From an uncultured Rhizobiaceae bacterium (lineage in GTDB: Bacteria > Pseudomonadota > Alphaproteobacteria > Rhizobiales > Rhizobiaceae), in contig CATOTF010000001.1 of the NCBI GenBank assembly GCA_951813045.1, forward strand, positions 287,956 to 351,955: a DNA stretch of 64,000 nt, read 5' to 3'. A program made the position numbers and the translations under genes. The notes under the pieces were generated by a model, which saw nothing but the letters and a program-made list of their open reading frames with translations, was not told the origin of the DNA and ran no database searches. Shown here one piece after another: positions 13,026 through 63,413 of this stretch. Every line of letters begins with the position of its first letter. The stretch's first letter is position 1.

Positions 13026-14336
13026 ATGAGTATATCAAAACCCTTACTTGGGCTCGCGCTGACGACAGGTATCGCGGCTTCTGGAATTACGGCTGCAAAC
13101 GCAGAAATGAATATCAAGCTGGAACCGTATGTAACAGCTGTGAATGCACCGCTTGCGATGGTTCAACCGGCTGGTGATGATAGAAAATTTGTCATCGAAC
13201 AGCACGGTCGCATTAAAATTATCGACAAAGATGGCAAACTGTTACCAACGCCGTTTCTTGATATCCGCAACAAGATTGTCCCTCTGTTTCACGATTTCGA
13301 CGAACGCGGTCTTCTTGGCCTGACTTTCCATCCGGACTTTGCAAACAACGGCAAATTTTATGTGGCTTATTCAACTCAGTTAAACGTTCAGGGTGATCTT
13401 GGAAAAATGTTCTGGTGGGATCACAACAACACCGTTGCAGAATATACGGTTTCAGCCGACGATCCAAATGTCGCCAATATCAGTTCCGGACGTATTATCA
13501 CCGAAATGGACTGGCCACAGTTTAACCATAACGGCCACTGGATCGACTTTGGTAAAGACGGCATGTTGTACATCTCCTCAGGCGATGGCGGTTATGCCAA
13601 CGACTGGGGTATTGGTCACAATGTGACAGAGGGTAATGGACAAGATATGTCGGTTCTCCTGGGCAAAATTCTGCGGATTGATGTCAATAAATCAGAAGGT
13701 GGCAAAAACTACGGAATTCCTGCTGACAACCCATTTGTCGGCAATTCAGATGCTCGTGGCGAAATCTTTGCCTACGGCCTGCGCAACCCCTGGCGCTGTT
13801 CTTTTGATATGAAGGGCGCCAACGAGTTGTTTTGTGCTGATGTGCAGCAAAACAGTTTTGAGGAAGTCGACATTATCGCTAAAGGCGACAATCTTGGCTG
13901 GCGCAAAACCGAAGGTGGCCGGTGCTTTGATTACCAAAAGCCTGATAATCATCCAGCAACCTGCGACAAAACCGGTATCGTTGATCCCATCATAACTTAT
14001 AAAAACTGCTCGGCTCAGCCGAATGGTTGTGCAGGTATTTCAATTACCGGTGGGTATGTTTATCGCGGCGCACACGCTGCCTGGGATGGCAAGTATATCT
14101 TCGGTGATTGGAGCAAGAGCTTCGGCGCCATGGACGGTCAGATATTCTTTGGTAGCAAAGGCGCCGATGGCGATTGGGAAATGGAAGTGGCGAAGGTCAC
14201 CAACATGGACGGTAATATTCCCTACATTCTGGCGTTTGCCCAGGATTCAGCCGGTGAAGTCTATGCTTTGACGTCTATAACAACGGGACCAAATGGTACG
14301 TTGGACACGATCTATAAGGTTGTACCCGCCAACTAG
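13026..14336 (+). CDS. PQQ-dependent sugar (glucose/sorbosone) dehydrogenase, periplasmic
   Basis: 436-aa ORF with a signal peptide (LALTTGIAASGITAANA). Beta-propeller motifs GLLGLTFHPDF, HNGHWIDFGKDGMLYISSGDGG and YGLRNPWRCSFD are present. Confidence 0.8.
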   Translation: MSISKPLLGLALTTGIAASGITAANAEMNIKLEPYVTAVNAPLAMVQPAGDDRKFVIEQHGRIKIIDKDGKLLPTPFLDIRNKIVPLFHDFDERGLLGLTFHPDFANNGKFYVAYSTQLNVQGDLGKMFWWDHNNTVAEYTVSADDPNVANISSGRIITEMDWPQFNHNGHWIDFGKDGMLYISSGDGGYANDWGIGHNVTEGNGQDMSVLLGKILRIDVNKSEGGKNYGIPADNPFVGNSDARGEIFAYGLRNPWRCSFDMKGANELFCADVQQNSFEEVDIIAKGDNLGWRKTEGGRCFDYQKPDNHPATCDKTGIVDPIITYKNCSAQPNGCAGISITGGYVYRGAHAAWDGKYIFGDWSKSFGAMDGQIFFGSKGADGDWEMEVAKVTNMDGNIPYILAFAQDSAGEVYALTSITTGPNGTLDTIYKVVPAN

Positions 14337-14496
14337 AACCCAACAGGAATGGTGCCGCTTGCCACGCTTGCGGCACCATTTTCGATTACCGAAAAATTTG
14401 GAAGAACCTGCAGGTTGTGCCAGATTAGGTCATCAAATGGTCATGACCTTGTTCCGAAATCACGATGTAATTTTATCGAATGTGAGCACAGAACTA

Positions 14497-15210
14497 ATGA
14501 AGTTTATCAATGCCAGCGCCCTGATTTCCATGTCGCTACTGGGTGTTCTTTATCCGGTTCAGTCATCAGCGCAGGACACTTATCTTGGAGAAAAGCTATT
14601 CAAGAAATGCAAGGCATGTCACGCGGTTGGCGAAGGGGCGAAACATCGCATTGGCCCGCAACTCAACGGTTTGGGCGGGCGTAAAGCCGGCACAGTTGAA
14701 GGTTTCGACTATTCTGACGGCATGAAGGCAGCTGGTGAAAACGGGTTGGTCTGGGACAAGAAGACCCTGGACAAGTTTCTGATCGAACCTGATGCGATGA
14801 TCGAAGACACTGCAATGGCTTTCTCCGGTCTGGAGAAAGCTGAGAACCGGACAGATTTGATCGCTTATCTGCTGACCCTTGCCCCCCCGGCCGCCAAAAA
14901 TAGTGGTGAAGTCGCTGCAAAAAAGGCCGTTGTTTCCGCGCCACCGGAATTTACGGAAGCTTATTTATCGGACCCGGCACATGTGGCGACGGGTAAAGAA
15001 CTATGGTTTGGGCAATGCACCCATTGCCACGGGTTCAAAGCTTATCCGGGAAAAGCCCCCAAATTGAAGCCGGAGAACTATACGCCCGACTTCGTCTATA
15101 AACGGGTCGCCAAAGGTTTCAAGAAAATGCCGGCATGGGAGGACGTATTCAGTCAAGACGAGATGAAAGCAATTGTTGCTTATGTGCAAAGCAATAGTTT
15201 TTCTCCGTAG
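14497..15210 (+). CDS. Dihaem c-type cytochrome, periplasmic
   Basis: The track ORF 14293..15210 is over-extended. The plausible start is ATG 14497 (MKFINASALISMSLLGVLYPVQSSA, a signal peptide). It has two CxxCH motifs (CKACH, CTHCH). Confidence 0.8.
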   Translation: MKFINASALISMSLLGVLYPVQSSAQDTYLGEKLFKKCKACHAVGEGAKHRIGPQLNGLGGRKAGTVEGFDYSDGMKAAGENGLVWDKKTLDKFLIEPDAMIEDTAMAFSGLEKAENRTDLIAYLLTLAPPAAKNSGEVAAKKAVVSAPPEFTEAYLSDPAHVATGKELWFGQCTHCHGFKAYPGKAPKLKPENYTPDFVYKRVAKGFKKMPAWEDVFSQDEMKAIVAYVQSNSFSP

Positions 15211-36412: not shown

Positions 36413-36830
36413 ATTCAAAATACAGTAACGATTTTAACGCGAGGCGGTGCACCAGATTGTTGAGCGAGGGTATCCGGTTGCGGAGGTTTCGAAACGATTA
36501 GGTGTCAGTACGCACTCCCTTTATGCGTGGGTGAAGAAGTTTTCCCGGTCTGACGGATCCGGTTCAGATGATCAGCAATCCGGCAAGATACGGAGGCTGA
36601 AGCTGGAACTGGCACGGGCCATCGAGGAGCGCGACATCCTAATTTGGAGCAGGATAAGAAAACAGTCCGGTGAACTGTTTTTCCTGCGGAACGGCCACCG
36701 TGTACTTCGCCCTGAATATGTAAAAGGAGGGTGCAACACGAAGTACACGTTCATGGTTGAGCATCGATCTTCGTTATTGTGCTCAATCTTAATCTGTCGA
36801 CCTCAAACAACACACGAACCGGTGATGTGA
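36413..36830 (+). pseudogene. IS3-family transposase remnant (orfA plus a stub of orfB), frameshifted and truncated
   Basis: The HTH part is intact: HQIVERGYPVAEVSKRLGVSTHSLYAWVKKF. The upstream KYSNDF... segment is in another frame. An extra roughly 50 bp separates ERDIL from ATVYFA. The KYTFMVEHR orfB start then ends abruptly. Confidence 0.6.
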
Positions 36831-37023: not shown

Positions 37024-37812
37024 TTGCTGTTGAATCTGGTTGGTAATCAGCGCGGTCATGTCGGCGAACTGGCCGTCCATCTGATGAAGCCGGAATACGA
37101 GAAGGCGGTCGTTCATCAGATCAGAGGGTTCATGTGCAACGATCTACGCTCTTCCCTGCAAGAAAGTGCTGCAGTTGCACGAACAACCAAGTGTTCCGAA
37201 CATCTTTATTCGCTGAGCCTCAATCCGCCCCATGAAGCAGAAGTCTCCGCACGAGAGTTTGAAGCCGTCGCTGACAGGGCCAAAGAACGCTTGGGACTAT
37301 TTGGTCAGCCGCGTCTTCCGGTCATTCACGAGAAGATTGGTCAAGACGGCCAGTTGCGCCGCCATGCCCATGCCGTGTGGTGCCGCATTGATGTGGAAAG
37401 TATGACAGCGATCCACATTCCCTTCGATCACACCAAGCTTCAGGCATCGGGCAAGGAATTGTTTCTGGAACATGGCTGGGAACTGCCGGCAGGTTATCTC
37501 AACAAACAGGAACGCGATCCGCTCAACTTCACTCTGGAAGAATGGCAGCAGGCCAAGCGGAGAAAGAAAGACCCGAAGGTCATCAAACAGGCCTTTCAGG
37601 AAGCCTGGGCTTCATCGGATGGAAAAGCCTCCTTTGTAGCGGCATTGAAGGATCACGATTATATTCTCGCCTGTGGCGACCGGCGCGGCTTTGTTGCGGT
37701 GGATAATCAGGGCGAAGTCTACGCGGTTGCCCGCTATGTGGGTGTCAGAACCAAAGAAGCTGGTGCCCGGTTGGGCGATCTGGATGATCTGCCTTCTGTT
37801 GAGCAGGCGTAG
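37024..37812 (+). pseudogene. Conjugative relaxase, MobA/VirD2-type relaxase domain only (terminated after 262 codons)
   Basis: VVHQIRGF...YSLSLNPP...HEK..RRHAHAVWCRID...FTLEEWQQAKR matches the relaxase/mobilisation nuclease family. A stop follows VEQA, where full-length proteins continue. Confidence 0.7.
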
Positions 37813-37949: not shown

Positions 37950-38684
37950 TCTTCAGAGCAAGCTTGGGAGAACGGGTATGATCAACTCCAGCGCGGCGAT
38001 GTGCTGGTGATTGATGAAGCAGGCATGATCGGCTCGCGGTAAATGGCACGCTTTATCACCGAAGCAAGGAACCGTGGCGCAAAGCTGGTGCTTGTTGGTG
38101 ACGCGGAGCAACTCCAGCCTATCGAAGCCGGGGCACCTTTTCGGGCGATCACTGAACGATCAGGGGCTGCCAGATTACGGGAAGTGCATCGCCAGAAAGA
38201 AGTTTGGCAACAAAAAACTTCCCAGCATCTGGCCAAGGCCGAAACCGGAAAGGCACTTCAGGCCTATGATGAGAATGATCGCATTGTTCTGTTACCCGGC
38301 TGCGATGAGGCCATTGCCACCCTTGTTGAAGACTATGTCGCCGATATCTGCATCAATAGCGCCAATGCCACTCGTCTCACCCTTGCTCATCGCAGGGCTG
38401 ATGTGAAAGCGCTGAATGAACACATACGCGACCGGCGCAAGGAATTGGGGGAACTCGTCGAAGACATCTCCTGCAGCACCACCCATGGCAAACGACCCTT
38501 CAGCACCAGTGACTGTCTTGTCTTCACCCGCAATGATCGTGATCTTGACATCAAGAACGGTATGCCGGGCACGGTGACAAAAATCTCCAAAACCAGGATC
38601 ACCGTCCGTCTGGATGATCCCGCCCCTGATGGCGATCCGCGCAAGCAGCCATTCACCACCGTCGCCAAACATTTGTCCGGTTAA
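37950..38684 (+). pseudogene. TraA-type relaxase helicase-domain fragment with an in-frame TAA
   Basis: GDVLVIDEAGMIGSR-TAA-MARFITEARNRGAKLVLVGDAEQLQPIEAGAPFRAI is a contiguous RecD/AAA_30 Walker-B region. It is interrupted by an in-frame stop at 38040-38042. The Walker A part and the C-terminus are missing. Confidence 0.7.
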
Positions 38685-38944: not shown

Positions 38945-40591
38945 TTAATTACTGACCGGTTTTGCTGCTTTATTTGGTACTTCTGAAATGCAACTGTTAA
39001 TTACGTCCCACATCAATTCGGGGTGTGAAGCGGCTGCAAGGTGACAGCCTTCCTTTAGAACCGTAACGTCTGCTGACGGGTGATTAGTCGCAAATTTTCG
39101 GATCAAATCCTGATGGGTAAATATGTCATTTGGCCCATGGAGAAAGTGGATCGACAGATGTTCCGGGACCTCACGCAGAACTGCTTCTTGTGATCGTGAT
39201 GCCAGACGAAAGTCGCCTGCAATGCCCAGTGGAGAATTTCTATGCAAGGCTTGGTACCAATCAAAACATTGGCCAGCACCGTATTTCCCATTGAGCACAC
39301 CAACGTCAATCTCGCAGCCCTTGAACAATCGTCTCAAAACGAATTTTGTCGCTTGCTTGTTTGAAAATGTTGTTTTCTGGAACTGCCGAACGAGGGTGTC
39401 GTAAATGTCGGTTTCTCCGGCTAATTTCCTGATACCTCCAAAAAAACTCGATGAAAACGACCGGGAATCAGAATTTATCTTCATCAAATTGATAGATGGA
39501 ATAATAATCTTGCTGAATAAATCGCCATCTAATTTTGCTATCAGCATTGCATAAAAACCGCCGGTGGCATGACCCACAACCGGAATGGGCTTTGGGCATA
39601 CCTGTTTGACAAAGAGTGTTAAATCTTCGACCGTTTTCTCTATCATACCACCGTCGAGATGAACGTCACTATAGGTTTGATTATCCAGATATCCACCTCG
39701 GATGGGCGCAATTAGCCGCAGCTTGTGTTGCTCAAGTTGTGCTTTTGCATTCAGCAATAAAATGGGAAACAGATACCCGTGGATCAGCAGAACGGGAGTG
39801 CCGTCCTGAGGACCTAATTCCCAATACCGCATCAATCGGCCGTTGGACAAACGTTGCGCCGACAGTTTGATATAGTTTCCGAGAAAATCCGTTGTGAACT
39901 TCTCAGTCGCATCCATATGAGACGTTTCCGCTTCACACAGATACAGAATGTGAATCATTTGACCCATTAACAGGCGCACGATTTCCAACTGACCGGTGCA
40001 GTGCAGTTTCGAAGACGCCTTCTTTAATTGCGAGCGCTTGGTTTCTACTGAAACATTATCTGCAACCGCTGCTTCGCCGGGTCCAAAACCCATCATTAAT
40101 TGATAAACCATGCGTTGTTCGGCGGCGGTCAGGTTTGCTGTTGAATTGAACAGGCGCAATATTTCAAAGAACAGTTCTTCTGTTACGAGAATTAATCGAC
40201 GAAGCGTCGTGGGCAACTCTGTGCTGGTTGCTGGCGTATACGGAATGCACCAAATAAAACCATTTGTGCCGTGTGTCGGGGTTAATCTGCCGGCATGAAG
40301 CCCATTGTCAGCGGCATCTTCCACAATGCCGGAAACGTCGTCATCGGTTTTATCGAATATAAGTCGTGATGACATGGAATCGATATTGGAGACGCCGCCC
40401 CGAACAAATCTGCCATCAAGTTGAAATTCCGCCCAACATAGGCTGCTGATGATCCGTGTATCATTGCGAAGATAACGTGAAACAACCTCGCGGCTCGAAA
40501 TAACCGCTTCATCAGAAGGGACTAATGAAAAAACCTCCTCAACAGTCTCCTGGAGAGATTTATCACTATCACGCACCGTATATTGCCCCAT
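38945..40591 (-). CDS. Fusion protein: unknown N-domain, LuxR-type HTH and alpha/beta-hydrolase fold with the nucleophile Ser replaced by Ala
   Basis: Likely start at ATG 40591 (GAGGA 7 nt upstream); the alternative start is 40642. The HTH is LTAAEQRMVYQLMMGFGPGEAAVADNVSVETKRSQLKKASSKL. The hydrolase part has LLIHGY, the elbow VVGHATGGFY instead of GHSxGG, then GPNDIF and EGCHLAAASHPE. The hydrolase-coding half is visibly AT-rich; 60-nt spot counts are about 28-37% GC, against 50-55% in flanking operons. Confidence 0.7.
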   Translation of the reverse strand: MGQYTVRDSDKSLQETVEEVFSLVPSDEAVISSREVVSRYLRNDTRIISSLCWAEFQLDGRFVRGGVSNIDSMSSRLIFDKTDDDVSGIVEDAADNGLHAGRLTPTHGTNGFIWCIPYTPATSTELPTTLRRLILVTEELFFEILRLFNSTANLTAAEQRMVYQLMMGFGPGEAAVADNVSVETKRSQLKKASSKLHCTGQLEIVRLLMGQMIHILYLCEAETSHMDATEKFTTDFLGNYIKLSAQRLSNGRLMRYWELGPQDGTPVLLIHGYLFPILLLNAKAQLEQHKLRLIAPIRGGYLDNQTYSDVHLDGGMIEKTVEDLTLFVKQVCPKPIPVVGHATGGFYAMLIAKLDGDLFSKIIIPSINLMKINSDSRSFSSSFFGGIRKLAGETDIYDTLVRQFQKTTFSNKQATKFVLRRLFKGCEIDVGVLNGKYGAGQCFDWYQALHRNSPLGIAGDFRLASRSQEAVLREVPEHLSIHFLHGPNDIFTHQDLIRKFATNHPSADVTVLKEGCHLAAASHPELMWDVINSCISEVPNKAAKPVSN

Positions 40592-40639
40592 TAAAATCCT
40601 CAACCAGGGGCATCCTAATAGAAAAAATACGAACTCAAA

Positions 40640-40653
40640 CACCCATATGGGTG
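40640..40653. promoter_or_regulatory. Perfect 14-bp palindrome CACCCATATGGGTG in the divergent regulator/autotransporter intergenic region
   Basis: Read directly from the sequence. It lies 49 nt upstream of the preferred regulator start and 130 nt upstream of the autotransporter start. Confidence 0.3.
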
Positions 40654-40782
40654 ATGCGAATCAATCTCATCACTTCTAAGCTTGAAACATAAATGGACAG
40701 TTTAGGTTGCTGTTGAACTTGTTGGTGAACAAAGCAGTAAATAAGCGCCAGAGCCATTGGGATTTCTAGGGGATTATTTGAA

Positions 40783-42882
40783 ATGTATTGCCAGTCGATT
40801 GAACTGAAGGAAATCTTCAGATCAAGAAGAGCGCTTTTACTGTCAGCCAGTGTTTTGGCCATTACAACGGGGTTAGTGGGTTCAAATCAGGCCTCGGCTC
40901 AATGTATACCGGTGGGATCAACGCTGACCTGTACGGGAGATTTATCCGGCGGCTTTGAAGATAACGATCTAACAATTGACCGTATCGAAGTGCTGAACCT
41001 TACAAGTGATTTCGGTAGGAACGGGTTAACTTTCCGAAATCCCGACAATGTCGATATTACCGTTGACGCAAACCTTGGTGCGTTTTCAATCAATCATGGT
41101 GACATTGCCACTTTTCGGAATTTCCGCAATGGGTTCAACATTCGGACAGGTGGCGGGATTCAAGGGTCACTTATTGGGGATATTAATGGGGCTGATCCAG
41201 GGCAGGTTCAAAGTTTTGGGACCAACACGTTCTTAAACAATTTTGGCTCACTGGGGCTTGATGCCGGCGGTGCAATCAACTTCACCCATACAGGCGATAT
41301 TAACGTTGAACGATTTGACACACGCGTCTTAAGAGACACAGCGCAGACTGCAACCGGCAGGTTCGGTGCGATACGCGCCGAGGCTGATACGGGCGATGTT
41401 TCCCTTACCAACATTGGCAATATCGGTATTGATGGTGGTCAACGTACCGTCGCGTCACTTGATTTTGGTAGCGACAATATTGAAGTTCAAGCTGTACAGT
41501 TTAGTAATCAGTTTTCGGAACATTCTGGTATTTTTATCCAGGGTGACAACGCCCTAACGCTGCGCCAAGACGGAGACATAACAACGACCGGCGGCGGAGC
41601 AAACGCATCTGGGGAGACCCGCGAAGCTGAAACTGGTGATGTAGTTGACGCCCGGGCAGATGGCTCTCGCGGTGCCGGAGTTTCAATTGTTCGTTTCACA
41701 AGGCGCGACGGCGTTATAGATACAACTCTGCCAGATCTCGATAATGTTTCAGTTGATATAAATGGTGATGTTACAGTCACGCAGGGAGACATCGTAAGCA
41801 CAGCGCGCGCAACCAGTGGTGTAGGAGCGAACGATATTGGGACGGCCGTCGCCATCACCAACCAACGATCGTCACTGATTGGGGTTCAGATCACAAATGG
41901 CTCAGAAATAGATGTATCTATAGACGGCAACGTCAACGTGACGGGTGGAAATGGAACTGCTCAGGCAACAACTGTTTCCAACGATGGCATGACACGTGGA
42001 TTTACCCATGCCAATGCGCGTGGTGTTTTTGCAACCGGGGTCAACGTGCGCCCCGACACACGAGAGGCGACAGATCCAAGAAACGCAGAGCTTGCGATTG
42101 AGGGTAACGTTACGGTAAAGGGCGGCGATGCCATGGCGCGCGTTGATGGGAATGCCGTGCCTGAAATCAATACTCTCATTTCAGATATTCCCAATTTCAC
42201 CCCGTCAAATGCCTTGGTGGCATCGGGCGGCAGTGCTAGCGGTATAACCTTCACGGGTCAGTTATTTTCCATTGATGGTGAGATTAATGCCAATGGTGGC
42301 GCAGCGACTGGTTTTGTTGACGGACTGGGACTTTCGGGATTGGTCACAGGCGGTAGTGCCAATGCATTGAACATTTTTCTTGGGGCCACCGATCTGTCAA
42401 TGGTTGGGAATATTACCAGCACATCAAACGGAGGCGACGCCGAATTGAGTTTGACCGGAAGTGATGGAACCGGCATCGCCCGAGGTGGTGGATCAACCGG
42501 TTCAGTTTTCGCCGGTACAGGAACGCATACGCAAACAGCACGCCTTACCTCAATTGGAGGAAACGCTATTGTCACCGGTGCAGGTAATGCTGCAGCGGCG
42601 GGAGGGACTGCAACCGGGTATGTTGTATTTGATGGTGCCGATGATCCCACATTTATGTCCATAAACCAGGCTGACATATCTGTAATAGGCGGGAATGCAA
42701 CTAATTCCACGAATGGTGTGGCTACTGGTGGTGCAGCGACAGGAATTATTATCCAGATCGGCCGGGAATCAATCGCTAACATGCGCAACGATCAGGCCAT
42801 TACTGCAATTGGCGGTGATGCTGTTCGAATGGGAACTGCAACAGAGGATCAAACAACACGTGGGGGGGCGCGATCGGAGTGA
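40783..42882 (+). CDS. Autotransporter passenger, N-terminal segment with signal peptide (frame A of a split gene)
   Basis: 699-aa ORF with an extended signal peptide (RRALLLSASVLAITTGLVGSNQASA). The sequence is Gly/Thr/Asn/Asp-rich and repetitive, consistent with a beta-helix. It has no beta-barrel domain and ends 14 nt after a G7 tract. Confidence 0.7.
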   Translation: MYCQSIELKEIFRSRRALLLSASVLAITTGLVGSNQASAQCIPVGSTLTCTGDLSGGFEDNDLTIDRIEVLNLTSDFGRNGLTFRNPDNVDITVDANLGAFSINHGDIATFRNFRNGFNIRTGGGIQGSLIGDINGADPGQVQSFGTNTFLNNFGSLGLDAGGAINFTHTGDINVERFDTRVLRDTAQTATGRFGAIRAEADTGDVSLTNIGNIGIDGGQRTVASLDFGSDNIEVQAVQFSNQFSEHSGIFIQGDNALTLRQDGDITTTGGGANASGETREAETGDVVDARADGSRGAGVSIVRFTRRDGVIDTTLPDLDNVSVDINGDVTVTQGDIVSTARATSGVGANDIGTAVAITNQRSSLIGVQITNGSEIDVSIDGNVNVTGGNGTAQATTVSNDGMTRGFTHANARGVFATGVNVRPDTREATDPRNAELAIEGNVTVKGGDAMARVDGNAVPEINTLISDIPNFTPSNALVASGGSASGITFTGQLFSIDGEINANGGAATGFVDGLGLSGLVTGGSANALNIFLGATDLSMVGNITSTSNGGDAELSLTGSDGTGIARGGGSTGSVFAGTGTHTQTARLTSIGGNAIVTGAGNAAAAGGTATGYVVFDGADDPTFMSINQADISVIGGNATNSTNGVATGGAATGIIIQIGRESIANMRNDQAITAIGGDAVRMGTATEDQTTRGGARSE
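42862..42868 (+). repeat. Homopolymeric G7 tract at the junction of the two autotransporter reading frames
   Basis: The sequence tgggggggcg lies inside the 64-nt window (42819-42882) where both frames are open. Confidence 0.95.
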
Positions 42883-45566
42883 CCGCAGTCACATTCGTTT
42901 CAAATGGCAGTGAAACGGTTACAGTGGAGAACTCAAATTCAATTACCGCCCGAGGCGGAGCGGGAACAGATTTACGTGGGGCGGCAGTCGGTATTTCCTC
43001 TGTAGATGCTCTATTTGGATCCGGGATGCAATCCGATGGTATCGTTCGCGTAACAGGCACAATTATTGCCGATGGTGAGGGAACTGATAACGACTTAACC
43101 GGGGCGCAGTCGGAATCAACGGGTGTGATTGTAAACCACTCCGGAACATCGACATTGCAAGTGGATGGCGGCACTGTCACTGCAACCGGTAATCACACTC
43201 ATGGACTTTCCACATCGTCAGTTTCAGCCAATATAACGTTGGAAAACGGAGCCCAGGTTTCAACTGTGGGTACAGATGCCCATGGCATTTTGATAACACC
43301 AAACACTGCGTTTTTTTCCAGTGACGGATCGCAGTTCAGAGCTGCAACCACGAGTATTCGGATTGACGACGGTTCAACGTTGACGAGCACCGGTGGAACC
43401 GGGATTTTTGACAATGGCAATACGACAGAGCGTGTAGACGACGGAACCGGTAATTTTGTATCGCAACTCCGCGAGGCTGATAATGCCACAACCGTGGACC
43501 TCGCGGGCGCCATCGCTGGTGGTAGCGGCATGGCAATTGACCTTGGGAATGGGGAAGACGCACTGATATTGCGCTCCACCGGGGATGTTACTGGAAATGT
43601 GACCTTGGGTAGCGGTGACGACATGTTCAGTTTCGAAGAAGGATTTACAACGACAGGCCGAATTAGCGGTGGAGATGGTAACGATATAATTGACGCAACC
43701 GTCGATCCTAATACGATCCGTGTGCTCGATTTTCAAGCACTTCCCGTCGATGACTTTGAAACCATCGCCAAAACAGGTGCCGGAACACTCAATATCCAAG
43801 GTCCGGGTATTTCGGGTCCGGCGCTTCTTCAGGCTGATGGTGGCCTTTCGCAAGTTTTGTCGGACCAGATAGACCTTAATATCGAAGTAAATTCCGGGGC
43901 AATCGTTTCAACCGATAATCGAGTTGGTGATGTTACGACACTGGGTACCGGTCGATTTCAAGGGACCGGTACGACCGCGAGTGTCAACAACAATGGTGTT
44001 CTTGCACCCGGCAACTCAATCGGGGCAATTGATGTCACAGGTGATCTGGCCTTGAATGCGGGGGGTACATTTGATGTGGAAATTATGTCGGATAACACGT
44101 CCGATCTGATCAATGTTGCTGGCGACGTGTTCTTGGGCGGCAATCTCCAAGTGACCGCACTTGGTGCGCTGACAGGGTTTTCCACGGCTAATCAATTTAC
44201 CATCATTGATGCTGCCGGGGGGATACCGGGTTCATTCTCCAATGTAGACGGCACTGGTTTACTTGATTCCACGGCTGAAAATCTGCCTGATCTCAATATT
44301 CAAGCCAATGTCGTACCAGATTCGGACGGTGGCGAAGAGTTGCAGCTTAACCTCGTGGCTATCGGTGCAACTCCCCCTGTTGACCCGCCGGTCGAACCCC
44401 CCGTTATGCCGCCTGTTGAACCTCCCGTCACACCACCTGTTCAACCCCCTATCGAGCCACCGGTTTTACCTCCTGTCGCTCCACTATCTGACGTCTCCGA
44501 CAAATCCATACATCCCAATGCGGTATTAGCGGGTGCGGATGTTGGGCGTGATTTCACCGATATCATGCAGCGTCGCACACGGATTGGCGGTGCATCAGGA
44601 GCGCAGGTGGCTTCCTTTGCATTCGATCTTTCCGGATCGGTGGTCGCCGTTGGCCAGAATACCGAGGCTGCATTGAATACGAATGGCAATGCCCGCCATG
44701 TTGAAGGCTTTTCGATATGGACGTCCGGCATCAGTGCCTTTCGTGATGTTGACAATAGTGGCGCGATCACCGGTTTTGACGCGACAACCGGCGGCTTTTT
44801 GATTGGCGTTGACCGCACCTTTGTGAGCGCTACCGCAACATATCAGTTTGGCGTCTCAAGCGGTTATTCAGTAACTGATGTCGATTCCGGCCCTTCGTCG
44901 GCCGATGTTGATACGTTTCATATTGGCGCATACGCCCGGATTGAAGCCGGGGCCCTGCTGGCATCCGCCGCTTTTGCTTACGGCTCTCAGGACTATGAGT
45001 TTGATCGCGTCATCCAGCTTGGTGGCGGCGCCACAGCGGTTGCGAGTGGCGATGCGGATGGGGATGTATTCTCTTTTTCCGCAGCCGCCTCTTATGACAT
45101 TGCACCAATGCTCGGGATTGACCGTGGAGGCAAGTTCCGTTTCGCTCCGCTGGTTCGGTTCGACCATGCTGATGTAAGCAGAGATGCTTTCACCGAGACG
45201 GGCGCTGGCATTTTGAACCTGACGACTGCGGAGGACAATTTCAACCGCACTTGGGGATCAATCGGACTAGAGATGTCCGGCACGGTGGAGACCAGCGCCG
45301 GCATGGTGGTGAACCCGTTCCTGGAATTTCGTTATGAGCGGGCATTAAACGACCCGGTCAATTCGACAAGTTCAGCAATTGCCGGCGTAGCGGGAGCGAA
45401 TTTCACCGCGCTTTCAGCCTCACCAGATCGTAATTCTTTTGCTGTAGGCACTGGGATTAGTGCAAAGCTGACCGATATGATTGAGGCCAATGTTCGCTAC
45501 GACGGTACATTCTCAGGTAATTTTGAAACCCACCGCGCAAGCGGAGGTATAACGATTAGGTTTTGA
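42879..45566 (+). CDS. Autotransporter passenger C-terminal part plus outer-membrane beta-barrel translocator (frame B of the split gene)
   Basis: 895-aa ORF with only a GTG start and no signal peptide. It has the junction region NNNGVLAPGNSIGAIDVTGDLALNAGGTFDVEI, a Pro-rich linker and a C-terminal barrel ending GGITIRF (aromatic terminal residue). Confidence 0.8.
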   Translation: MTAVTFVSNGSETVTVENSNSITARGGAGTDLRGAAVGISSVDALFGSGMQSDGIVRVTGTIIADGEGTDNDLTGAQSESTGVIVNHSGTSTLQVDGGTVTATGNHTHGLSTSSVSANITLENGAQVSTVGTDAHGILITPNTAFFSSDGSQFRAATTSIRIDDGSTLTSTGGTGIFDNGNTTERVDDGTGNFVSQLREADNATTVDLAGAIAGGSGMAIDLGNGEDALILRSTGDVTGNVTLGSGDDMFSFEEGFTTTGRISGGDGNDIIDATVDPNTIRVLDFQALPVDDFETIAKTGAGTLNIQGPGISGPALLQADGGLSQVLSDQIDLNIEVNSGAIVSTDNRVGDVTTLGTGRFQGTGTTASVNNNGVLAPGNSIGAIDVTGDLALNAGGTFDVEIMSDNTSDLINVAGDVFLGGNLQVTALGALTGFSTANQFTIIDAAGGIPGSFSNVDGTGLLDSTAENLPDLNIQANVVPDSDGGEELQLNLVAIGATPPVDPPVEPPVMPPVEPPVTPPVQPPIEPPVLPPVAPLSDVSDKSIHPNAVLAGADVGRDFTDIMQRRTRIGGASGAQVASFAFDLSGSVVAVGQNTEAALNTNGNARHVEGFSIWTSGISAFRDVDNSGAITGFDATTGGFLIGVDRTFVSATATYQFGVSSGYSVTDVDSGPSSADVDTFHIGAYARIEAGALLASAAFAYGSQDYEFDRVIQLGGGATAVASGDADGDVFSFSAAASYDIAPMLGIDRGGKFRFAPLVRFDHADVSRDAFTETGAGILNLTTAEDNFNRTWGSIGLEMSGTVETSAGMVVNPFLEFRYERALNDPVNSTSSAIAGVAGANFTALSASPDRNSFAVGTGISAKLTDMIEANVRYDGTFSGNFETHRASGGITIRF
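44373..44483 (+). repeat. Tandem 12-nt coding repeat, about 9 copies of PPVx (PPVDPPVEPPVMPPVEPPVTPPVQPPIEPPVLPPVAP)
   Basis: Read from the translation of frame B. It lies between the passenger and the translocator domain. Confidence 0.85.
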
Positions 45567-45769
45567 AGGTGAACGGGCCCTTGAGTGACGACATATCAAC
45601 AGCTAACGGACAGCACAAAATAGGGGGTCAAGCGCGTTTCTATGAACCGAGTTAAACGAAACTCGCATTGAAACATCGAAATGTTCATCGCGGTCAGTAT
45701 GTTCCATTTTGATAAGTCAATAATGAATCATCGAGTTTGATGTGTGAGAGGACGAATATAAGTAATGCA

Positions 45770-46195
45770 ACCAAGACTGAGGAAAAGAATACTGACGCGC
45801 TGGCGAACACGCAGGAAAAATCAGTAAACAGCGCCGCCGAAGGCGCTACTGCGGAGGTTGATGCCGAAGCGGTAAAAAAAGTAAGCGTACTGCGCGCGTA
45901 AGTGCGTGAAAGCTTTGACAAGATCGTCATGGCCATTTGGGCGAGCCGGTCGGATGAAATGGAATCCAAAGTCAAAAACCAGATTAAATCCGGCACATGT
46001 CCCGTACGGCTTGCGACGGAAAACTGGAACTCAGGAACCAACAACTGGTTGTTGGATGTCATCGCGCCGGATTTAAAAACCGCAGAATCAGCCATCGTAA
46101 AATTCAAACAGGTGGTAAGATAGAGTTCCCTGGAATTGCACTCCGTCATCACCCGTCTGGTGGATGATGAAGCATTGAGAACCATGGGCACGGAA
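45770..46195 (+). pseudogene. HlyC/RtxC-family toxin-activating lysine acyltransferase remnant
   Basis: IWASRSDEMESKVKNQIKSG..RLATENWNSGTNNWLLDVIAPDL parallels E. coli HlyC ...CSWANLSLENEIKYL...AEDWTSGDRKWFIDWIAPFG. There is no usable start codon. In-frame stops lie at TAA 45899-45901 and TAG 46121-46123, with protein-like sequence continuing after the TAG (LELHSVITRLVDDEALRTMG). Confidence 0.5.
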
Positions 46196-46439
46196 AAATG
46201 GTGTTATCCCAAAGGAATTTGGATTCGATCCATCTTCAATGTCACAACACATAGATAGAACGGAACTTATTTACTTCCCCAAGGGTCAATGTTAAATTCC
46301 GTTTGTATAAGAGCAAGTTCGACCCCGTGCGCCTGAATTCGCGACCTGTTACAAAATTTAAAAATAAAGCACAGCCGTGACCGGCTAAATGCACGTAGCA
46401 GAACCAACTGAAATCCACCGTCAAAAGGCGGAGTGGTAA

Positions 46440-46724
46440 CAGCAAACTTCGCTGAATTTTTGCGCATGCGGCTCCGACCTCAGTTCCCCAATCACATCTG
46501 AATCTATCCCGGTTCACCGTGGGAATGGATACAACGAACGCATCAACGGAACGCTCCACCACGAAGTCTTAAATACCGGATGGTTCTACACCACCGAACA
46601 GGCCCAGATCGTCATCAATAAATGGATCAGGCGGTACAATCGCATCCGGCCTCATAGGTCCTTGAACATGAGATCGCCGGTACAAGAAACCGTATCAAAA
46701 AGTGGCCCAGACATTGGGAGCTAG
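46440..46724 (+). pseudogene. DDE (rve/integrase-core) transposase C-terminal remnant
   Basis: The hand translation NGYNERINGTLHHEVLNTGWFYTTEQAQIVINKWIRRYNRIRPHRSLNMRSP is the conserved C-terminal end of rve-type transposases. The upstream part is frameshifted (…FAEFLRM…PGSPWE). Confidence 0.55.
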
Positions 46725-47047
46725 ACACGGCATATCTACACGTTTGGTTTGCAGAGTTTGCGCGACTTACCAGAGCTCGAGATTGATCACACGGCATCAA
46801 TTGCAAATTGCAGATGAATAACTCTCTCATCCTGTATAGGGATTTATGAGTATAAGACGCTCAGGATTGGTGGGAAAGTTTCAAACAGGAACGAACAATC
46901 GACACCGATCATACTGACACTGCCAACATGTGTCGCAGACAGGTTGACGTCAGACCTCAAAGATGCCGATGTGAATTATCAATCTGGACTTGTCACGGTT
47001 TAGTTCCGTGTCCTTGAATTGGATTAATCCCATCAAGGAGAACTATT

Positions 47048-47323
47048 ATGGCACGAGGCCACACAGACGAATTCAAGCGTGAAGCGGTGCGTATTGCGCT
47101 GACCAGCGGACTTACCCGGAAACAAGTGGCATCAGATTTGGGGGTCGGCTTTTCGACGTTATCGAAATGGATACAACAATCCCGGCCTGATGACCTTCCA
47201 CCATCGGTTGATATTGATCTGGCCAAAGAGAATGAGCGGCTTCGCAGAGAGGTTCGTCTCCTCACGGAGGAGAGGGAGATATTAAAGAAGGCAACAGTGT
47301 TCTTCGCGGGTCAAAGCAAGTGA
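47048..47323 (+). CDS. IS3-family transposase OrfA (HTH)
   Basis: 91-aa ORF: MARGHTDEFKREAVRIALTSGLTRKQVASDLGVGFSTLSKWI, a leucine-zipper-like region and the ILKKATVFFA end. Confidence 0.88.
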   Translation: MARGHTDEFKREAVRIALTSGLTRKQVASDLGVGFSTLSKWIQQSRPDDLPPSVDIDLAKENERLRREVRLLTEEREILKKATVFFAGQSK

Positions 47324-48177
47324 GATTTGCGTTTGTCGAAGAACACAGGAAACACGTTCCGGTGGATCGGCTTTGCCATATTCTGAATGTTACATCGCGT
47401 GGTTATCGTGCCTGGCACAACCGCCCTGTTAGTCAACGGCAGCGCGATGACATGGTGGTTCTGGCGCACATCCGTGAACAGCATCACTTGAGCCTTGGCA
47501 GTTATGGTCGCCCGAGAATGACGCAGGAGTTGAAGGAAGCCGGCCTTGCTATTGGTCACCGCCGTGTTGGCCGCCTGATGCGCGACAACGGCATTCGAGT
47601 GGTCAGAACACGCAAATACAAAGCTACGACCGATAGCAATCACCGCTTCAACATTGCGCCTAACTTGCTGGGGCGGAACTTCCAAGCGGATAAACCCAAC
47701 CAGAAATGGGCAGGTGACATCAGCTACATCTGGACCCGTGAGGGCTGGCTGTATCTGGCAGTGATGATCGATCTACATTCACGCCGTGTGGTGGGTTGGG
47801 CTGTCAGCAACCGGTTGAAGAAAGACTTGGCATTGCAGGCTCTCAACCGGGCTTTGGCCCTTCGAAACCCACCGCCGGGCTGCATTCATCATACGGACCG
47901 TGGCAGTCAATACTGCTCTCATGATTATCAAAAACGAATGCGTGAACTGAAGTTTAAAGTGTCCATGAGCCGAAAAGGCAATTGCTGGGACAACGCCGTG
48001 GTCGAGACGTTCTTCAAAACACTCAAAGCCGAACTCATCTGGCGCGGCACATGGCAAACACGACAGCAAGCAACCGACGCCCTGTTCCAATACATCAACG
48101 GCTTTTACAACAGCCGCAGAAGACACTCAGCAATAGGAGGAATGTCGCCCATCAAATTTGAACGAAAAACGAGTTAA
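47320..48177 (+). CDS. IS3-family transposase OrfB (DDE/rve catalytic domain)
   Basis: 285-aa ORF in the -1 frame relative to orfA and open from 47236. DDE region WAGDISYI...HTDRGSQY...GNCWDNAVVETFF. Confidence 0.9.
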   Translation: MRFAFVEEHRKHVPVDRLCHILNVTSRGYRAWHNRPVSQRQRDDMVVLAHIREQHHLSLGSYGRPRMTQELKEAGLAIGHRRVGRLMRDNGIRVVRTRKYKATTDSNHRFNIAPNLLGRNFQADKPNQKWAGDISYIWTREGWLYLAVMIDLHSRRVVGWAVSNRLKKDLALQALNRALALRNPPPGCIHHTDRGSQYCSHDYQKRMRELKFKVSMSRKGNCWDNAVVETFFKTLKAELIWRGTWQTRQQATDALFQYINGFYNSRRRHSAIGGMSPIKFERKTS

Positions 48178-49734: not shown

Positions 49735-49843
49735 TGTGAATCCCGGAGACAAAATGACCACAGAAATGGTTGGGTAATCTGACCGTCGCGGAGTAAAATT
49801 CCGCACTCTGACACCTTGTGCTTGTGAGTATTAGGTGGGGAAG

Positions 49844-51343
49844 ATGTATTCTGTGGATTTGTATAGTCGGGTGCGTCGAGCGTGCCATGTGGATGGGAAG
49901 AACAATAGCGAGGTGGCCCGTTTGTTCGGGATTGATCGCAAAACCGTGGCGAAGATCCTGAAGCACTCGGTTCCGCCCGGTTATCAAAGAACGACCGCGC
50001 CTGTTCGCCCGAAGTTGGATCCGTTTGTTGGGATAATTGATCAGATCCTGAAAGACGACAAAAAGGTCATCAAAAAGCAACGGCACACAGCCAAGCGTAT
50101 TCATGCGCGGTTACGGGATGAGCACGGGTTCACTGGCGGGATCACCATTGTCACTGATTATGTGCGTGAGAAGCAAAGACGAACCCAGGAGGTGTTTGTT
50201 CCTCTGGTTCACGCGCCCGGCCATGCTCAGGTCGATTTTGGTGAGACGTTCGGCGTGATCGACGGTGTCGAACGCAAGCTGCATTACATCGCTATATCGT
50301 TGCCGCATTCGGATGCGTTCTTCATGAAGGCGTATCCGGCGGAAACAACAGAAGCCTTCTGTGACGGTCACAATGCTGCGTTTGCTTTCTTCGGCGGTGT
50401 GCCGTTGTCGATGCTCTACGACAACACCGTGATTGCAGTTGCAAAGATCCTGGGCGGTGGCAAACGGATACGCACGAGAACTTTCTCAGAGCTACAATCG
50501 CACTATCTGTTTGAGGATAAGTTTGGTCGCCCTGGCAAAGGCAATGATAAAGGGAATGTCGAAGGCGTCATTGGTTACGGTCGCAGGAACTTTCTCATCC
50601 CAGCCCCACGGTTCGACAGCTTTGATGCCTTGAACGCCTGGTTGGAAGAATGCTGCCTGAAGCGTCAGGATGATGTTGTTCGCGGACATGGTGAGAGTAT
50701 TGGTGAACGATTGCTGAGAGACCTGGACGCGCTGATGGCATTGCCCCCAACGCCATACGACGCGTGTGAAAAGTTTAGCACGCGGGCAACGTCAATCTCG
50801 ATGATCCGCTACCGCAATAATGATTACTCCGTTCCTGTCGCCTTTGCCCATCATGAGGTTCAGGTTCGCGGTTACATCCATGAGGTTGTGATTGGCAGTG
50901 GAACCGAGATTATTGCCCGCCATCGTCGGTCTTATGAGAAGGCAGACATGATCTTCGACCCGCTTCACTATCTGCCCTTGCTGGAACAAAAGGTAGGTGC
51001 TCTCGATCAGGCGGCACCATTGCAAGGCTGGGGTTTACCCGATGCATTTGCGATCCTTCATCGTTTATTAGAAGCCCGCATGGGTAAGGCGGGAAAACGC
51101 GAGTATGTTCAGATCCTGCGTCTGCTGGAAACTTTTGAGCTGGAGCACGTTCACGCCGCAATCCAACAAGCTTTGGATCTGGGTGCCATTGGCTATGATG
51201 CGATCAAGCACCTTATTCTGTGCCGGATCGAGCGGCGACCGCCCAGGCTTGATCTCGACATCTACCCCTATTTGCCCAAAGCGGTGGTCGAGACGACAAA
51301 ACCTGCCAGCTATGCCGTGCTGTTGTCGGAGGCGGCAGCATGA
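49844..51343 (+). CDS. istA: IS21-family transposase IstA
   Basis: MYSVDLYSRVRRA...HTAKRIHARLRDEHGFTGG...VDFGE..., a typical IstA HTH plus DDE. The track ORF starts at GTG 49835. Confidence 0.9.
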   Translation: MYSVDLYSRVRRACHVDGKNNSEVARLFGIDRKTVAKILKHSVPPGYQRTTAPVRPKLDPFVGIIDQILKDDKKVIKKQRHTAKRIHARLRDEHGFTGGITIVTDYVREKQRRTQEVFVPLVHAPGHAQVDFGETFGVIDGVERKLHYIAISLPHSDAFFMKAYPAETTEAFCDGHNAAFAFFGGVPLSMLYDNTVIAVAKILGGGKRIRTRTFSELQSHYLFEDKFGRPGKGNDKGNVEGVIGYGRRNFLIPAPRFDSFDALNAWLEECCLKRQDDVVRGHGESIGERLLRDLDALMALPPTPYDACEKFSTRATSISMIRYRNNDYSVPVAFAHHEVQVRGYIHEVVIGSGTEIIARHRRSYEKADMIFDPLHYLPLLEQKVGALDQAAPLQGWGLPDAFAILHRLLEARMGKAGKREYVQILRLLETFELEHVHAAIQQALDLGAIGYDAIKHLILCRIERRPPRLDLDIYPYLPKAVVETTKPASYAVLLSEAAA

Positions 51344-52116
51344 ACGACACTGTTACCGATACACCGCAAGTTCTACTCAAACATCATCTGACCAAACTTC
51401 GGCTGCCAACCTTCCAGAGTGAATATACCAAACAGGCCCAACAATGTGCCGCTGAGAATAAGGATCATGTCCAATATCTCCTGCGGTTATGTGAGTTGGA
51501 GCTGATTGAACGTGAGCGCCGAATGGTGGAGCGACGCATCAAAGCTGCGAAGTTCCCGGCAACCAAGAGCCTCGACAGCTTTGACTTCAAAACGATCCCG
51601 TCAGTGAACAAGGTGCTCGTGATGGAACTGGCCCGTTGCGAGTACGCTGCGAAACGCCAAAACATCATCGCGTTAGGACCAAGTGGAACCGGCAAAACCC
51701 ATGTTGCCCTCGGCCTTGGACTGGCTGCCTGCCAAAAGGGGATGAAAGTCCGCTTCACCACGGCTGCTGCACTGGTTCATGAGATGATCGAGGCCGTTGA
51801 TGAACGTCGCTTGCAACGGCATCAAAAACAACTGGCAGCTCAAGACCTGCTGATCATTGACGAACTGGGCTTCGTCCCTCTCTCCAAAACCGGGGCGGAG
51901 TTGCTGTTCGAAGTAATCAGCCAACGGTATGAACGCGGTTCCATCATCATCACATCCAATCTACCATTCGACGAATGGACAGAGGTCTTCGGATCAGAAC
52001 GCCTAACGGGCGCAATACTCGACCGGCTGACACACCACGTCCACATCCTGGAGATGAATGGTGAAAGCTACAGGTTGCACCAGAGCCGAAAACAAAAATC
52101 TGTTCAAATCAACTGA
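51340..52116 (+). CDS. istB: IS21-family helper ATPase IstB
   Basis: 258-aa ORF with Walker A GPSGTGKTH and Walker B LLIIDELG. It has an ATGA overlap with istA. Confidence 0.92.
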   Translation: MNDTVTDTPQVLLKHHLTKLRLPTFQSEYTKQAQQCAAENKDHVQYLLRLCELELIERERRMVERRIKAAKFPATKSLDSFDFKTIPSVNKVLVMELARCEYAAKRQNIIALGPSGTGKTHVALGLGLAACQKGMKVRFTTAAALVHEMIEAVDERRLQRHQKQLAAQDLLIIDELGFVPLSKTGAELLFEVISQRYERGSIIITSNLPFDEWTEVFGSERLTGAILDRLTHHVHILEMNGESYRLHQSRKQKSVQIN

Positions 52117-61974: not shown

Positions 61975-62328
61975 GTGACCAACGAGACCACCATTTACAA
62001 GATTACACCGCGAGCAGCATGGAAGGAAGCGGAGGACCAAGAAGTTTTCAAGGGCGCAGCGATAGATCTGGAAGATGGGTACATCCATTTTTCCACCGCG
62101 CAACAGGCTTCAGAAACCGCAGCAAAGCATTTCAAGAATGAAGAAGATTTGCTGCTCGTTGCGGTTGATACATCGCAACTTGGTGACGCCCTTAAATGGG
62201 AGGTTTCCCGAAACAATGCCCTCTTCCCACATCTATATTCGAGCCTGGATCTGAAACATGTTCTATGGGCTCGACCAATACCCATGGGTAATGACGGTGT
62301 TCATATCCTGCCATTGGAAGCTGAATGA
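61975..62328 (+). CDS. DUF952-family protein
   Basis: IYKITPRAAW...GYIHFSTAQQ...LLLVAVD...KWEVSRNNALFPHLY matches DUF952. The start is either GTG 61975 or TTG 61966. Confidence 0.7.
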   Translation: MTNETTIYKITPRAAWKEAEDQEVFKGAAIDLEDGYIHFSTAQQASETAAKHFKNEEDLLLVAVDTSQLGDALKWEVSRNNALFPHLYSSLDLKHVLWARPIPMGNDGVHILPLEAE

Positions 62329-63413
62329 GAAGCCTGTATTCAACATTGGGCCGGTCATTCCTTTTTCAGATCGACGCAGAAAAAGCGCATAAGCTTTCCA
62401 TATCCGCATTGAGCAAGGGTCTGCATCCAAATCGCCGGAATGATTTGGACACGCGGTTAGCGGTGAATGTTTCAGGGCTGCAATTTCCAAATCCCCTTGG
62501 CATGGCTGCCGGATATGACAAAAACGGCGACGTGCCCGATGCATTGTTACGCATGGGCTTTGGACACACTGAAGTTGGAACCATCACACCAAAACCGCAA
62601 CCTGGAAATTCAAAGCCCCGAATTTTCAGACTGCGGGAAGATGAAGGTGTCATCAACCGACTTGGCTTTAACAGCGACGGCCATGCCCTCGCGCAGGACA
62701 AACTCTCTCAATGCGAAGGTCGACCTGGAATCGTTGGGATCAACATTGGTGCTAATAAAACAAGCGAAAATTTTGTGGCCGACTACGTGAAAGGAATTCA
62801 TGCGTTTTCATCCCACGCCAGCTATTTCACAATCAACATATCTTCGCCCAACACACCGGGGCTTCGCGCATTACAGGAGGCCGACCCACTCGCTGAGTTG
62901 ATAAAACGGGTGTGTGATGCACGTTCACTTGAATCGGAAAAACAATCTAAAAAACTCCCTCTTTTTTTAAAAATTGCCCCGGATCTTAGTGAAAATGAAC
63001 TTGATGACATTGCCGATGCAGTTGAGCGATCTGAACTGGACGCATTAATTGTGTCCAACACAACGTTGTCTCGCGAGGGACTTCAATCTTCCAATGCAAA
63101 TGAGGCCGGAGGGCTTTCAGGTAAACCATTGTTCAAGAAGTCCACAATCGCACTCGCCAAGATGTTCCAACGCATAGGGAAAAACACCCCGCTGGTGGGC
63201 GTGGGCGGCATCACCGATGTGGATTCTGCATTTAACAAAATTGAAGCGGGTGCAACACTTATTCAGCTTTATTCAGGCATGGTTTTCGCCGGGCCTCGCT
63301 TACCAGGTGATATTGTTGATGGACTCTCCCGCAAGCTGGACAAGGAAAATATTAAACACGTCTCTGATGTTGTCGGACGTGCCGCGCAAGATTGGGCAGA
63401 CCGCAGTATATGA
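62325..63413 (+). CDS. pyrD: Dihydroorotate dehydrogenase (quinone), class 2
   Basis: 362-aa ORF with FPNPLGMAAGYDKNG, GFGHTEVGTITPKPQPGN, NISSPNTPGLRALQ, SNTT and LVGVGGI. Confidence 0.95.
   Translation: MRSLYSTLGRSFLFQIDAEKAHKLSISALSKGLHPNRRNDLDTRLAVNVSGLQFPNPLGMAAGYDKNGDVPDALLRMGFGHTEVGTITPKPQPGNSKPRIFRLREDEGVINRLGFNSDGHALAQDKLSQCEGRPGIVGINIGANKTSENFVADYVKGIHAFSSHASYFTINISSPNTPGLRALQEADPLAELIKRVCDARSLESEKQSKKLPLFLKIAPDLSENELDDIADAVERSELDALIVSNTTLSREGLQSSNANEAGGLSGKPLFKKSTIALAKMFQRIGKNTPLVGVGGITDVDSAFNKIEAGATLIQLYSGMVFAGPRLPGDIVDGLSRKLDKENIKHVSDVVGRAAQDWADRSI

Follow-up and report, generated by a model that had tools for sequence, protein, structure and literature searches.

The type Va autotransporter gene bapC (BP2738) of Bordetella pertussis has its open reading frame (ORF) broken at a poly-G tract, and a change of one base restores the full length (PMC1891110). 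The poly-G tract of bapC (G10-G13, with C14 as a second tract) lies near the gene's 5′ end and is polymorphic both among strains and within single colonies (PMC1891110). In Campylobacter jejuni and C. coli the autotransporter genes capC and capD occur either intact or inactivated by frameshifts, some of them at G tracts, and this inactivation has been attributed, with thousands of genomes behind the conclusion, to lineage-specific gene decay and not to phase variation (PMC7168839). Here we analyse an autotransporter gene with a comparable lesion, located in a 64,000-nt stretch of DNA (the window) from an uncultured Rhizobiaceae bacterium (GenBank assembly GCA_951813045.1, contig CATOTF010000001.1, positions 287,956 to 351,955 of the forward strand). 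As in bapC, the frame is broken at a run of G and a one-base change repairs it; unlike bapC, the run is G7, lies mid-gene, is missing from homologs and is known here from one sequence. The likeness to capC and capD lies in the frameshift at a G tract, and the differences are that one sequence stands here against thousands of genomes there and that the passenger family and the host are unrelated. As judged from their sequences, the evidence set out below gives good support to the view that a single classical (type Va) autotransporter gene has been divided between the two ORFs of this locus, ORF A and ORF B.

ORF A (40783..42882, forward strand; 699 aa) starts with ATG, 9 nt downstream of a Shine-Dalgarno-like AGGGGA that was read from the sequence (40768..40773, forward strand). 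It encodes a signal peptide and the N-terminal 694 passenger residues, followed by five out-of-frame codons (ARSE and the stop), and no barrel was found in it. By inspection its N-terminus is of the Sec type (MYCQSIELKEIFRSRR-ALLLSASVLAITTGLVG-SNQASA, then QC), with a basic n-region (KEIFRSRR) leading into a hydrophobic core; the predicted signal peptide covers residues 1-39 (40783..40899, forward strand), with cleavage between ASA and QC. Residues A39, Q40, C41 and C50 of ORF A are invariant in the alignment with relatives. ORF B (42879..45566, forward strand; 895 aa as listed from a GTG) supplies the C-terminal 900 residues encoded by the gene: what is left of the passenger, then a Pro-rich linker, a helical linker segment and the PF03797 barrel of 12 strands. 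No signal peptide precedes it, and it lacks a spaced ribosome-binding site, a GGAG overlapping the listed GTG. As listed, ORF A and ORF B overlap by 4 nt.

Adding one G to the tract (G8) yields a single 1594-aa ORF reading ...TTRGGGAIGVTAV..., and removing two (G5) yields a single 1593-aa ORF reading ...TTRGGAIGV...; no further stop or shift was found in the 1594 fused codons. Several hallmarks of type Va secretion are present at the locus, namely the Sec signal peptide, a 12-strand PF03797 barrel with an aromatic end, and a predicted helical linker after a beta-solenoid passenger. As sequenced (699 + 895 aa), no single polypeptide unites signal peptide, passenger and translocator; after insertion of one G, one polypeptide does.

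The translocator was examined by profile and structure comparison. PF03797 matches ORF B residues 613-875 (E 1.6e-46), and TIGR01414 also matches (E 5.7e-30). An AlphaFold2 model of ORF B, built on a shallow alignment of five sequences and of moderate confidence (mean pLDDT 64), predicts short strands over residues 14-494, resembling a solenoid passenger, then a disordered Pro-rich segment (497-545), a helix (546-569) and twelve long strands. The predicted helical linker (ORF B residues 546-569; 44514..44585, forward strand) therefore precedes the 12-stranded beta-barrel, which PF03797, the model and Foldseek place at 44706..45563 (forward strand) and which ends in ...GGITIRF, with a C-terminal Phe. 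Foldseek matched the barrel to the beta-domains of BrkA, EstA, NalP, AIDA-I, Hbp and EspP (E 6e-9 to 5e-7), with a TM-score of 0.73 against that of BrkA. These proteins share with the present gene a 12-strand PF03797 barrel after a linker helix and a C-terminal Phe. The passenger sets the gene apart from them: neither passenger half has a Pfam match, and the profile search of the PDB gave matches restricted to barrels plus a weak autochaperone-like stretch.

Between passenger and helix lies a predicted disordered linker of PPVxPPV type (44394..44484, forward strand; PPVDPPVEPPVMPPVEPPVTPPVQPPIEPPVLPPV), which forms an insertion of about 40 aa before the barrel helix and is missing from the three aligned homologs. 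An imperfect tandem repeat of 24 nt makes up this linker, which may therefore be an in-frame spacer of variable length.

Relatives were sought with the fused protein in a database of 5.8 billion protein clusters, with ORF A in an exhaustive HMMER search of 1.84 billion representative proteins, and in further searches of GTDB genome contigs and JGI metagenome contigs for close relatives. Among the 5.8 billion clusters just four relatives of the fused protein were recovered, three of which (1530-1534 aa) align over 99-100% of its length with 32-35% identity: P0001 (1534 aa) and P0002 (1533 aa), with query coverage of 99%, and P0003 (1530 aa), from Hoeflea prorocentri. The two ORFs of the window themselves did not come up in the cluster search, although both are in the collection; for ORF A, the exhaustive HMMER search covers the gap. 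That search returned 20 proteins, none above 41% identity, including ten full-length relatives of 1506-1563 aa to whose N-terminal halves ORF A aligns. The four HMMER relatives that were scanned have an architecture identical to that of the fused protein. Genome scans added Hoeflea poritis, Thalassococcus and Ahrensia, together with fragments from metagenome-assembled genomes. Every complete relative examined is one ORF. On sequence grounds the family is a small, uncharacterised set (about 20 members, including Hoeflea, Ahrensia and Thalassococcus) of classical autotransporters of about 1500 aa from marine Alphaproteobacteria. No relative above about 42% identity was found in the protein, GTDB genome or JGI metagenome collections searched, so there was no sister strain in which to compare the tract. 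A megablast of the locus and its flanks against PLSDB gave matches only to insertion sequence (IS) elements and one phosphodiesterase gene.

The position of the lesion was then defined from the reading frames and from homology. Both frames are open together over 64 nt (42819..42882, forward strand), from 42819, where frame B becomes open, to the TGA at 42880-42882 that closes frame A, and this interval holds the G7 tract (42862..42868, forward strand), the longest G run and the sole G run of at least 7 nt in the window. In alignments with five and then twelve relatives, the relatives match frame A up to ...GGDA...TTRGG and frame B from AIGV onwards, which places the shift at codons 693-697 of the gene; no match was found for frame B read 5′ of the tract (CCSNGNCNRGSNNTW). 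The split is more than a chance juxtaposition of frames, because frame B stays open for 895 codons past the shift. When every homopolymer of at least 5 nt was scanned for shifts that would fuse two long open frames, 42862 emerged as the only real split; the other candidates were rejected as ordinary overlapping operon genes.

Eight G at this site would read CGT GGG GGG GGC (Arg-Gly-Gly-Gly). The resulting join, RGGGAIG, aligns ungapped to GG[ASEDT]A[IFT]G in 12/12 aligned relatives, and the GGxAxG motif recurs within the protein itself (residues 447-735). The fit of RGGGAIG to a motif kept in all twelve relatives indicates that G8 is the native state, and G8 is preferred to G5 because G5 would remove one residue from the GGxAxG spacing. 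By this comparison, the window is one G short. The preliminary description of this DNA had proposed an autotransporter of roughly 1590 aa split between two frames at G7, with signal peptide and passenger but no translocator in frame A, with more passenger, a Pro-rich linker and the barrel behind a GTG start and no signal peptide in frame B, with both frames open together only around the tract, and with fusion of the two by G8 or G5. All of this was borne out: coordinates, frames and the uninterrupted fused ORFs agree, the PF03797 and TIGR01414 matches identify the barrel, and the shift site defined by homology coincides with the tract.

How the G came to be missing is a separate question. We favour, with confidence that falls a little short of an even chance, the reading that one G was lost in a real and recent deletion, which would make the gene a pseudogene of very recent origin. 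The gene is a type Va autotransporter gene of about 4.8 kb, with a glycine-rich beta-solenoid passenger of about 1250 residues, in which the eight native G's coded for Arg-Gly-Gly-Gly within one recurring GGxAxG turn. The missing G would then have dropped out of the sequenced clone's DNA, most likely through ordinary slippage at replication. Translation from the ATG would produce a 699-aa fragment that would be exported to the periplasm and presumably degraded, and that could not reach the surface because it lacks a translocator. The downstream 895 codons would be effectively silent because they have neither a signal peptide nor a usable ribosome-binding site. A +1 slip could revert the gene, but only as rarely as is usual for a run of 7 nt. 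The architecture of the gene, the place and size of the lesion, the native G8 and the lack of other lesions are shown by the analysis, whereas we infer that the DNA itself and not the consensus carries the lesion, what becomes of the truncated products, and how rarely reversion would occur.

Genuine decay adjoins the gene, in the form of an IS3 orfA remnant, two TraA relaxase fragments, an IS3 element and an IS21 element, consistent with a real mutation. The calling of homopolymers elsewhere in the window also bears on this reading. Thirty-three other homopolymers of at least 6 nt, including one C7, eleven G6/C6 and seven A7/T7, are found well within long open frames, which they leave unbroken. 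Among about 35 other genes of the window with Pfam matches, domain coverage is mostly complete and none appears frameshifted. The assembly does not look generally indel-prone. The sole other G/C homopolymer of at least 7 nt in the window is the C7 at 14882-14888; it separates the two domains for haem binding in a dihaem cytochrome c ORF (14293-15210), leaves the frame intact and provides an internal control for homopolymer calling.

The strongest competitor is an assembly or consensus error, in which the DNA would carry G8 and an intact 1594-aa gene and the homopolymer would have been under-called by one base. We regard this as a substantial possibility, somewhat less probable than a real deletion. 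G8 restores the exact GGxAxG spacing of the family, the gene is otherwise without defect, and the tract is the longest G run of the window. According to two reports, residual errors of long-read assemblies concentrate at G/C homopolymers, with deletions typical, and create false pseudogenes (PMC12007338, PMC8011154); the present case resembles these in that a gene without other flaws lacks one base at its longest G run. Long reads are suggested for this assembly by the presence of the IS3 and IS21 copies within the assembled contig of 390,817 bp and by an identical IstB on another contig of >1 Mb; the occurrence of identical IstB on contigs of >1 Mb and of 0.2-1 Mb gives the same hint. Against a miscall stand the 33 comparable homopolymers, over which the window, unlike indel-prone long-read assemblies, shows no such error, and the apparent absence of a frameshift from every other window gene that was checked.

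Several of these observations weigh against the deletion that we favour. The hint of a long-read assembly brings with it the residual error typical of such assemblies, as described in the two reports. That no second lesion occurs in 1594 codons would be expected of an artefact or of a switch under maintenance as much as of a mutation that happened very recently. Since switching is documented for bvgS and siaD at tracts of 6-7 nt, the short length of the present tract is compatible with reversible behaviour. An under-called G8 is itself compatible with the sequence, and we give it the same appreciable, lesser weight as above.

The preliminary description had also raised the possibility of an evolved phase-variable contingency locus, in which slipped-strand mispairing would toggle the gene between ON (G8 or G5) and OFF (G7) and the genome would have been caught OFF. 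We consider this unlikely. The setting invites the comparison, as a poly-G lies within the coding sequence of a surface autotransporter whose halves are both otherwise intact, and bapC offers a precedent with its G10/G11 states (PMC1891110). The length of the tract, 7 or 8 nt, is at or under the thresholds used to find contingency loci, which were >8 for C/G tracts in Bordetella (PMC1891110) and at least 9 for G tracts in Neisseria (PMC5953494). Both papers nevertheless note that tracts as short as 6-7 nt, those of bvgS and siaD, can switch (PMC1891110, PMC5953494). G/C homopolymers are not enriched in the window: two runs of at least 7 nt were observed in the 64 kb against 2.7 expected, and 14 of at least 6 nt against 12.9, where the expectation is analytic and derives from a second-order Markov model. 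Thus, of the features looked for in a contingency locus, an otherwise intact gene with a frame restorable by tract length was found, and tract length and over-representation were not.

Comparison with relatives gave a similar picture. All homologs examined at the DNA level lack the tract, their sequence at this site being GGT GGC GCC or GGC GGG TCA, with no homopolymer. Among the 33 Gly-Gly(-Gly) runs of the gene, which use mixed codons, the G7 site alone is encoded entirely by G (GGG GGG GGC), an observation that could be taken in favour of a switch; GGG makes up 18% of the glycine codons. The tract sits 44% into the gene and not near its 5′ end, the host is taken to be a roseobacter-like marine alphaproteobacterium and a full-text literature search on roseobacter autotransporters with homopolymers gave no paper, and the comparable inactivations in Campylobacter autotransporters were judged to be lineage decay (PMC7168839). 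Taken together, the evidence points away from a switch, and the tract is probably a chance product of glycine codon choice and not an evolved contingency locus. Of the three readings in the preliminary description (phase switch, pseudogene or miscall), what stands is a single gene broken at a G tract, with one more G in its native form; the phase switch is unsupported and somewhat weakened, given the lack of a homopolymer in relatives, the lack of enrichment, the length of 7-8 nt and the mid-gene position. We hold it to be doubtful, slightly more so than the general proposal, that the G7/G8 run acts as a working if slow ON/OFF switch of a large adhesin-like autotransporter in a roseobacter-like, marine, non-pathogenic lineage for which the literature search brought up no such behaviour, for example one that toggles attachment to algae or particles.

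Programmed recoding on G7, by a -1 ribosomal frameshift or by transcriptional slippage adding one G, would give the full-length protein from the sequence as it stands, and we consider it very improbable. Frame B is indeed -1 relative to frame A, and a P-site slip on G GGG would yield RGGGAIGV, the same as the G8 product. The 0 frame, however, reads T GGG GGG GCG, which contains no X XXY YYZ heptamer, and the 100 nt downstream fold no better than shuffled sequence (z = -0.56). Nor is the site conserved, the homologs being unshifted single ORFs that lack the G run. Thus, slippery heptamer, stimulatory structure and conservation, the marks of a programmed -1 frameshift, were all lacking. Slippage by RNA polymerase is known mainly at A/T runs of nine or more, which also argues against recoding here. 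Rfam gave no match anywhere in the 64-kb window, and a scan for promoters and terminators performed at chance level, with 7 promoter-like sites against 7.0 expected. A naturally split system, in which passenger and translocator work as separate gene products, is less probable again and effectively refuted: the two long ORFs overlap by 4 nt as translationally coupled genes do, but ORF B lacks a signal peptide and begins in the middle of a beta-solenoid repeat, the relatives are all single polypeptides, and the barrel is of the 12-strand type Va and not of the Omp85/TpsB kind. Even jointly, recoding and a natural split are highly improbable.

The surroundings of the gene contain further degraded and mobile DNA. 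Upstream lies a truncated remnant of an IS3-type orfA (HTH_Tnp_1; 36447-36830). A Ti-type TraA relaxase is left there in two pieces, one with the nuclease domain only (37024-37812) and one with part of the AAA_30 helicase and SH3_13 (38043-38684), most of the protein being missing. Divergent from the autotransporter gene, on the reverse strand, is a gene with a LuxR-type helix-turn-helix (HTH) and an alpha/beta-hydrolase fold (38945-40642). It belongs to a family of proteins of 548-565 aa with a LuxR/CsgD-type HTH mid-protein and about 30 homologs (Hoeflea, Novosphingobium and metagenomes). The nucleophile motif of this family is GHATGG or a near variant, with Ala in place of the expected catalytic Ser in all six aligned members, which suggests that the product may be a conserved pseudo-enzyme regulator. 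A conserved pairing of this gene with the autotransporter was considered and rejected, as the neighbours at loci L015 and L016 are unrelated.

Downstream, the ORFs in about 1.5 kb between the autotransporter stop and the next element (45567-47047) are all short or unsupported, and neither Pfam nor Rfam gave a match; this is possibly degraded sequence. It is followed by an intact-looking element of the IS3 family (47048-48177), with a -1-frame overlap of orfA and orfB at 47320-47323, and by an IS21 (istA/istB; 49835-52116) that is 87% identical to one on a plasmid of Sulfitobacter sp. SK012. Besides the contigs of >1 Mb and 0.2-1 Mb mentioned above, an identical IstB is found on the metagenome contig L014, which has a hifiasm-style name. 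From these identical copies on several contigs it was concluded that the IS21 is multi-copy or recently mobile. Identity between a gamma-glutamyltransferase encoded in the window and proteins of Phaeobacter, Marinibacterium and Jannaschia reaches 76-78% at most, from which a poorly sampled host resembling Rhodobacteraceae was concluded. A full-length dihydroorotate dehydrogenase (pyrD-like) gene (62325-63413) lies on the same contig as the plasmid-type relaxase remnants, a combination that suggests a chromid or chromosomal fragment and not a simple plasmid.

Overall, the locus presents an ordinary fresh frameshift or a sequencing miscall, and the reading as phase variation is unsupported. This is not a discovery, and it merits a corrected annotation and a check of the reads. 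For annotation, the two ORFs belong in a single entry, a frameshifted autotransporter gene whose native product has 1594 aa, rather than in entries for two proteins; the site also serves as a cheap check of assembly quality. If the tract were shown to be heterogeneous in length, a free-living marine lineage would join those with homopolymer phase variation, and nothing here points that way. An intact copy of the gene would be of modest interest for surface attachment in roseobacters.

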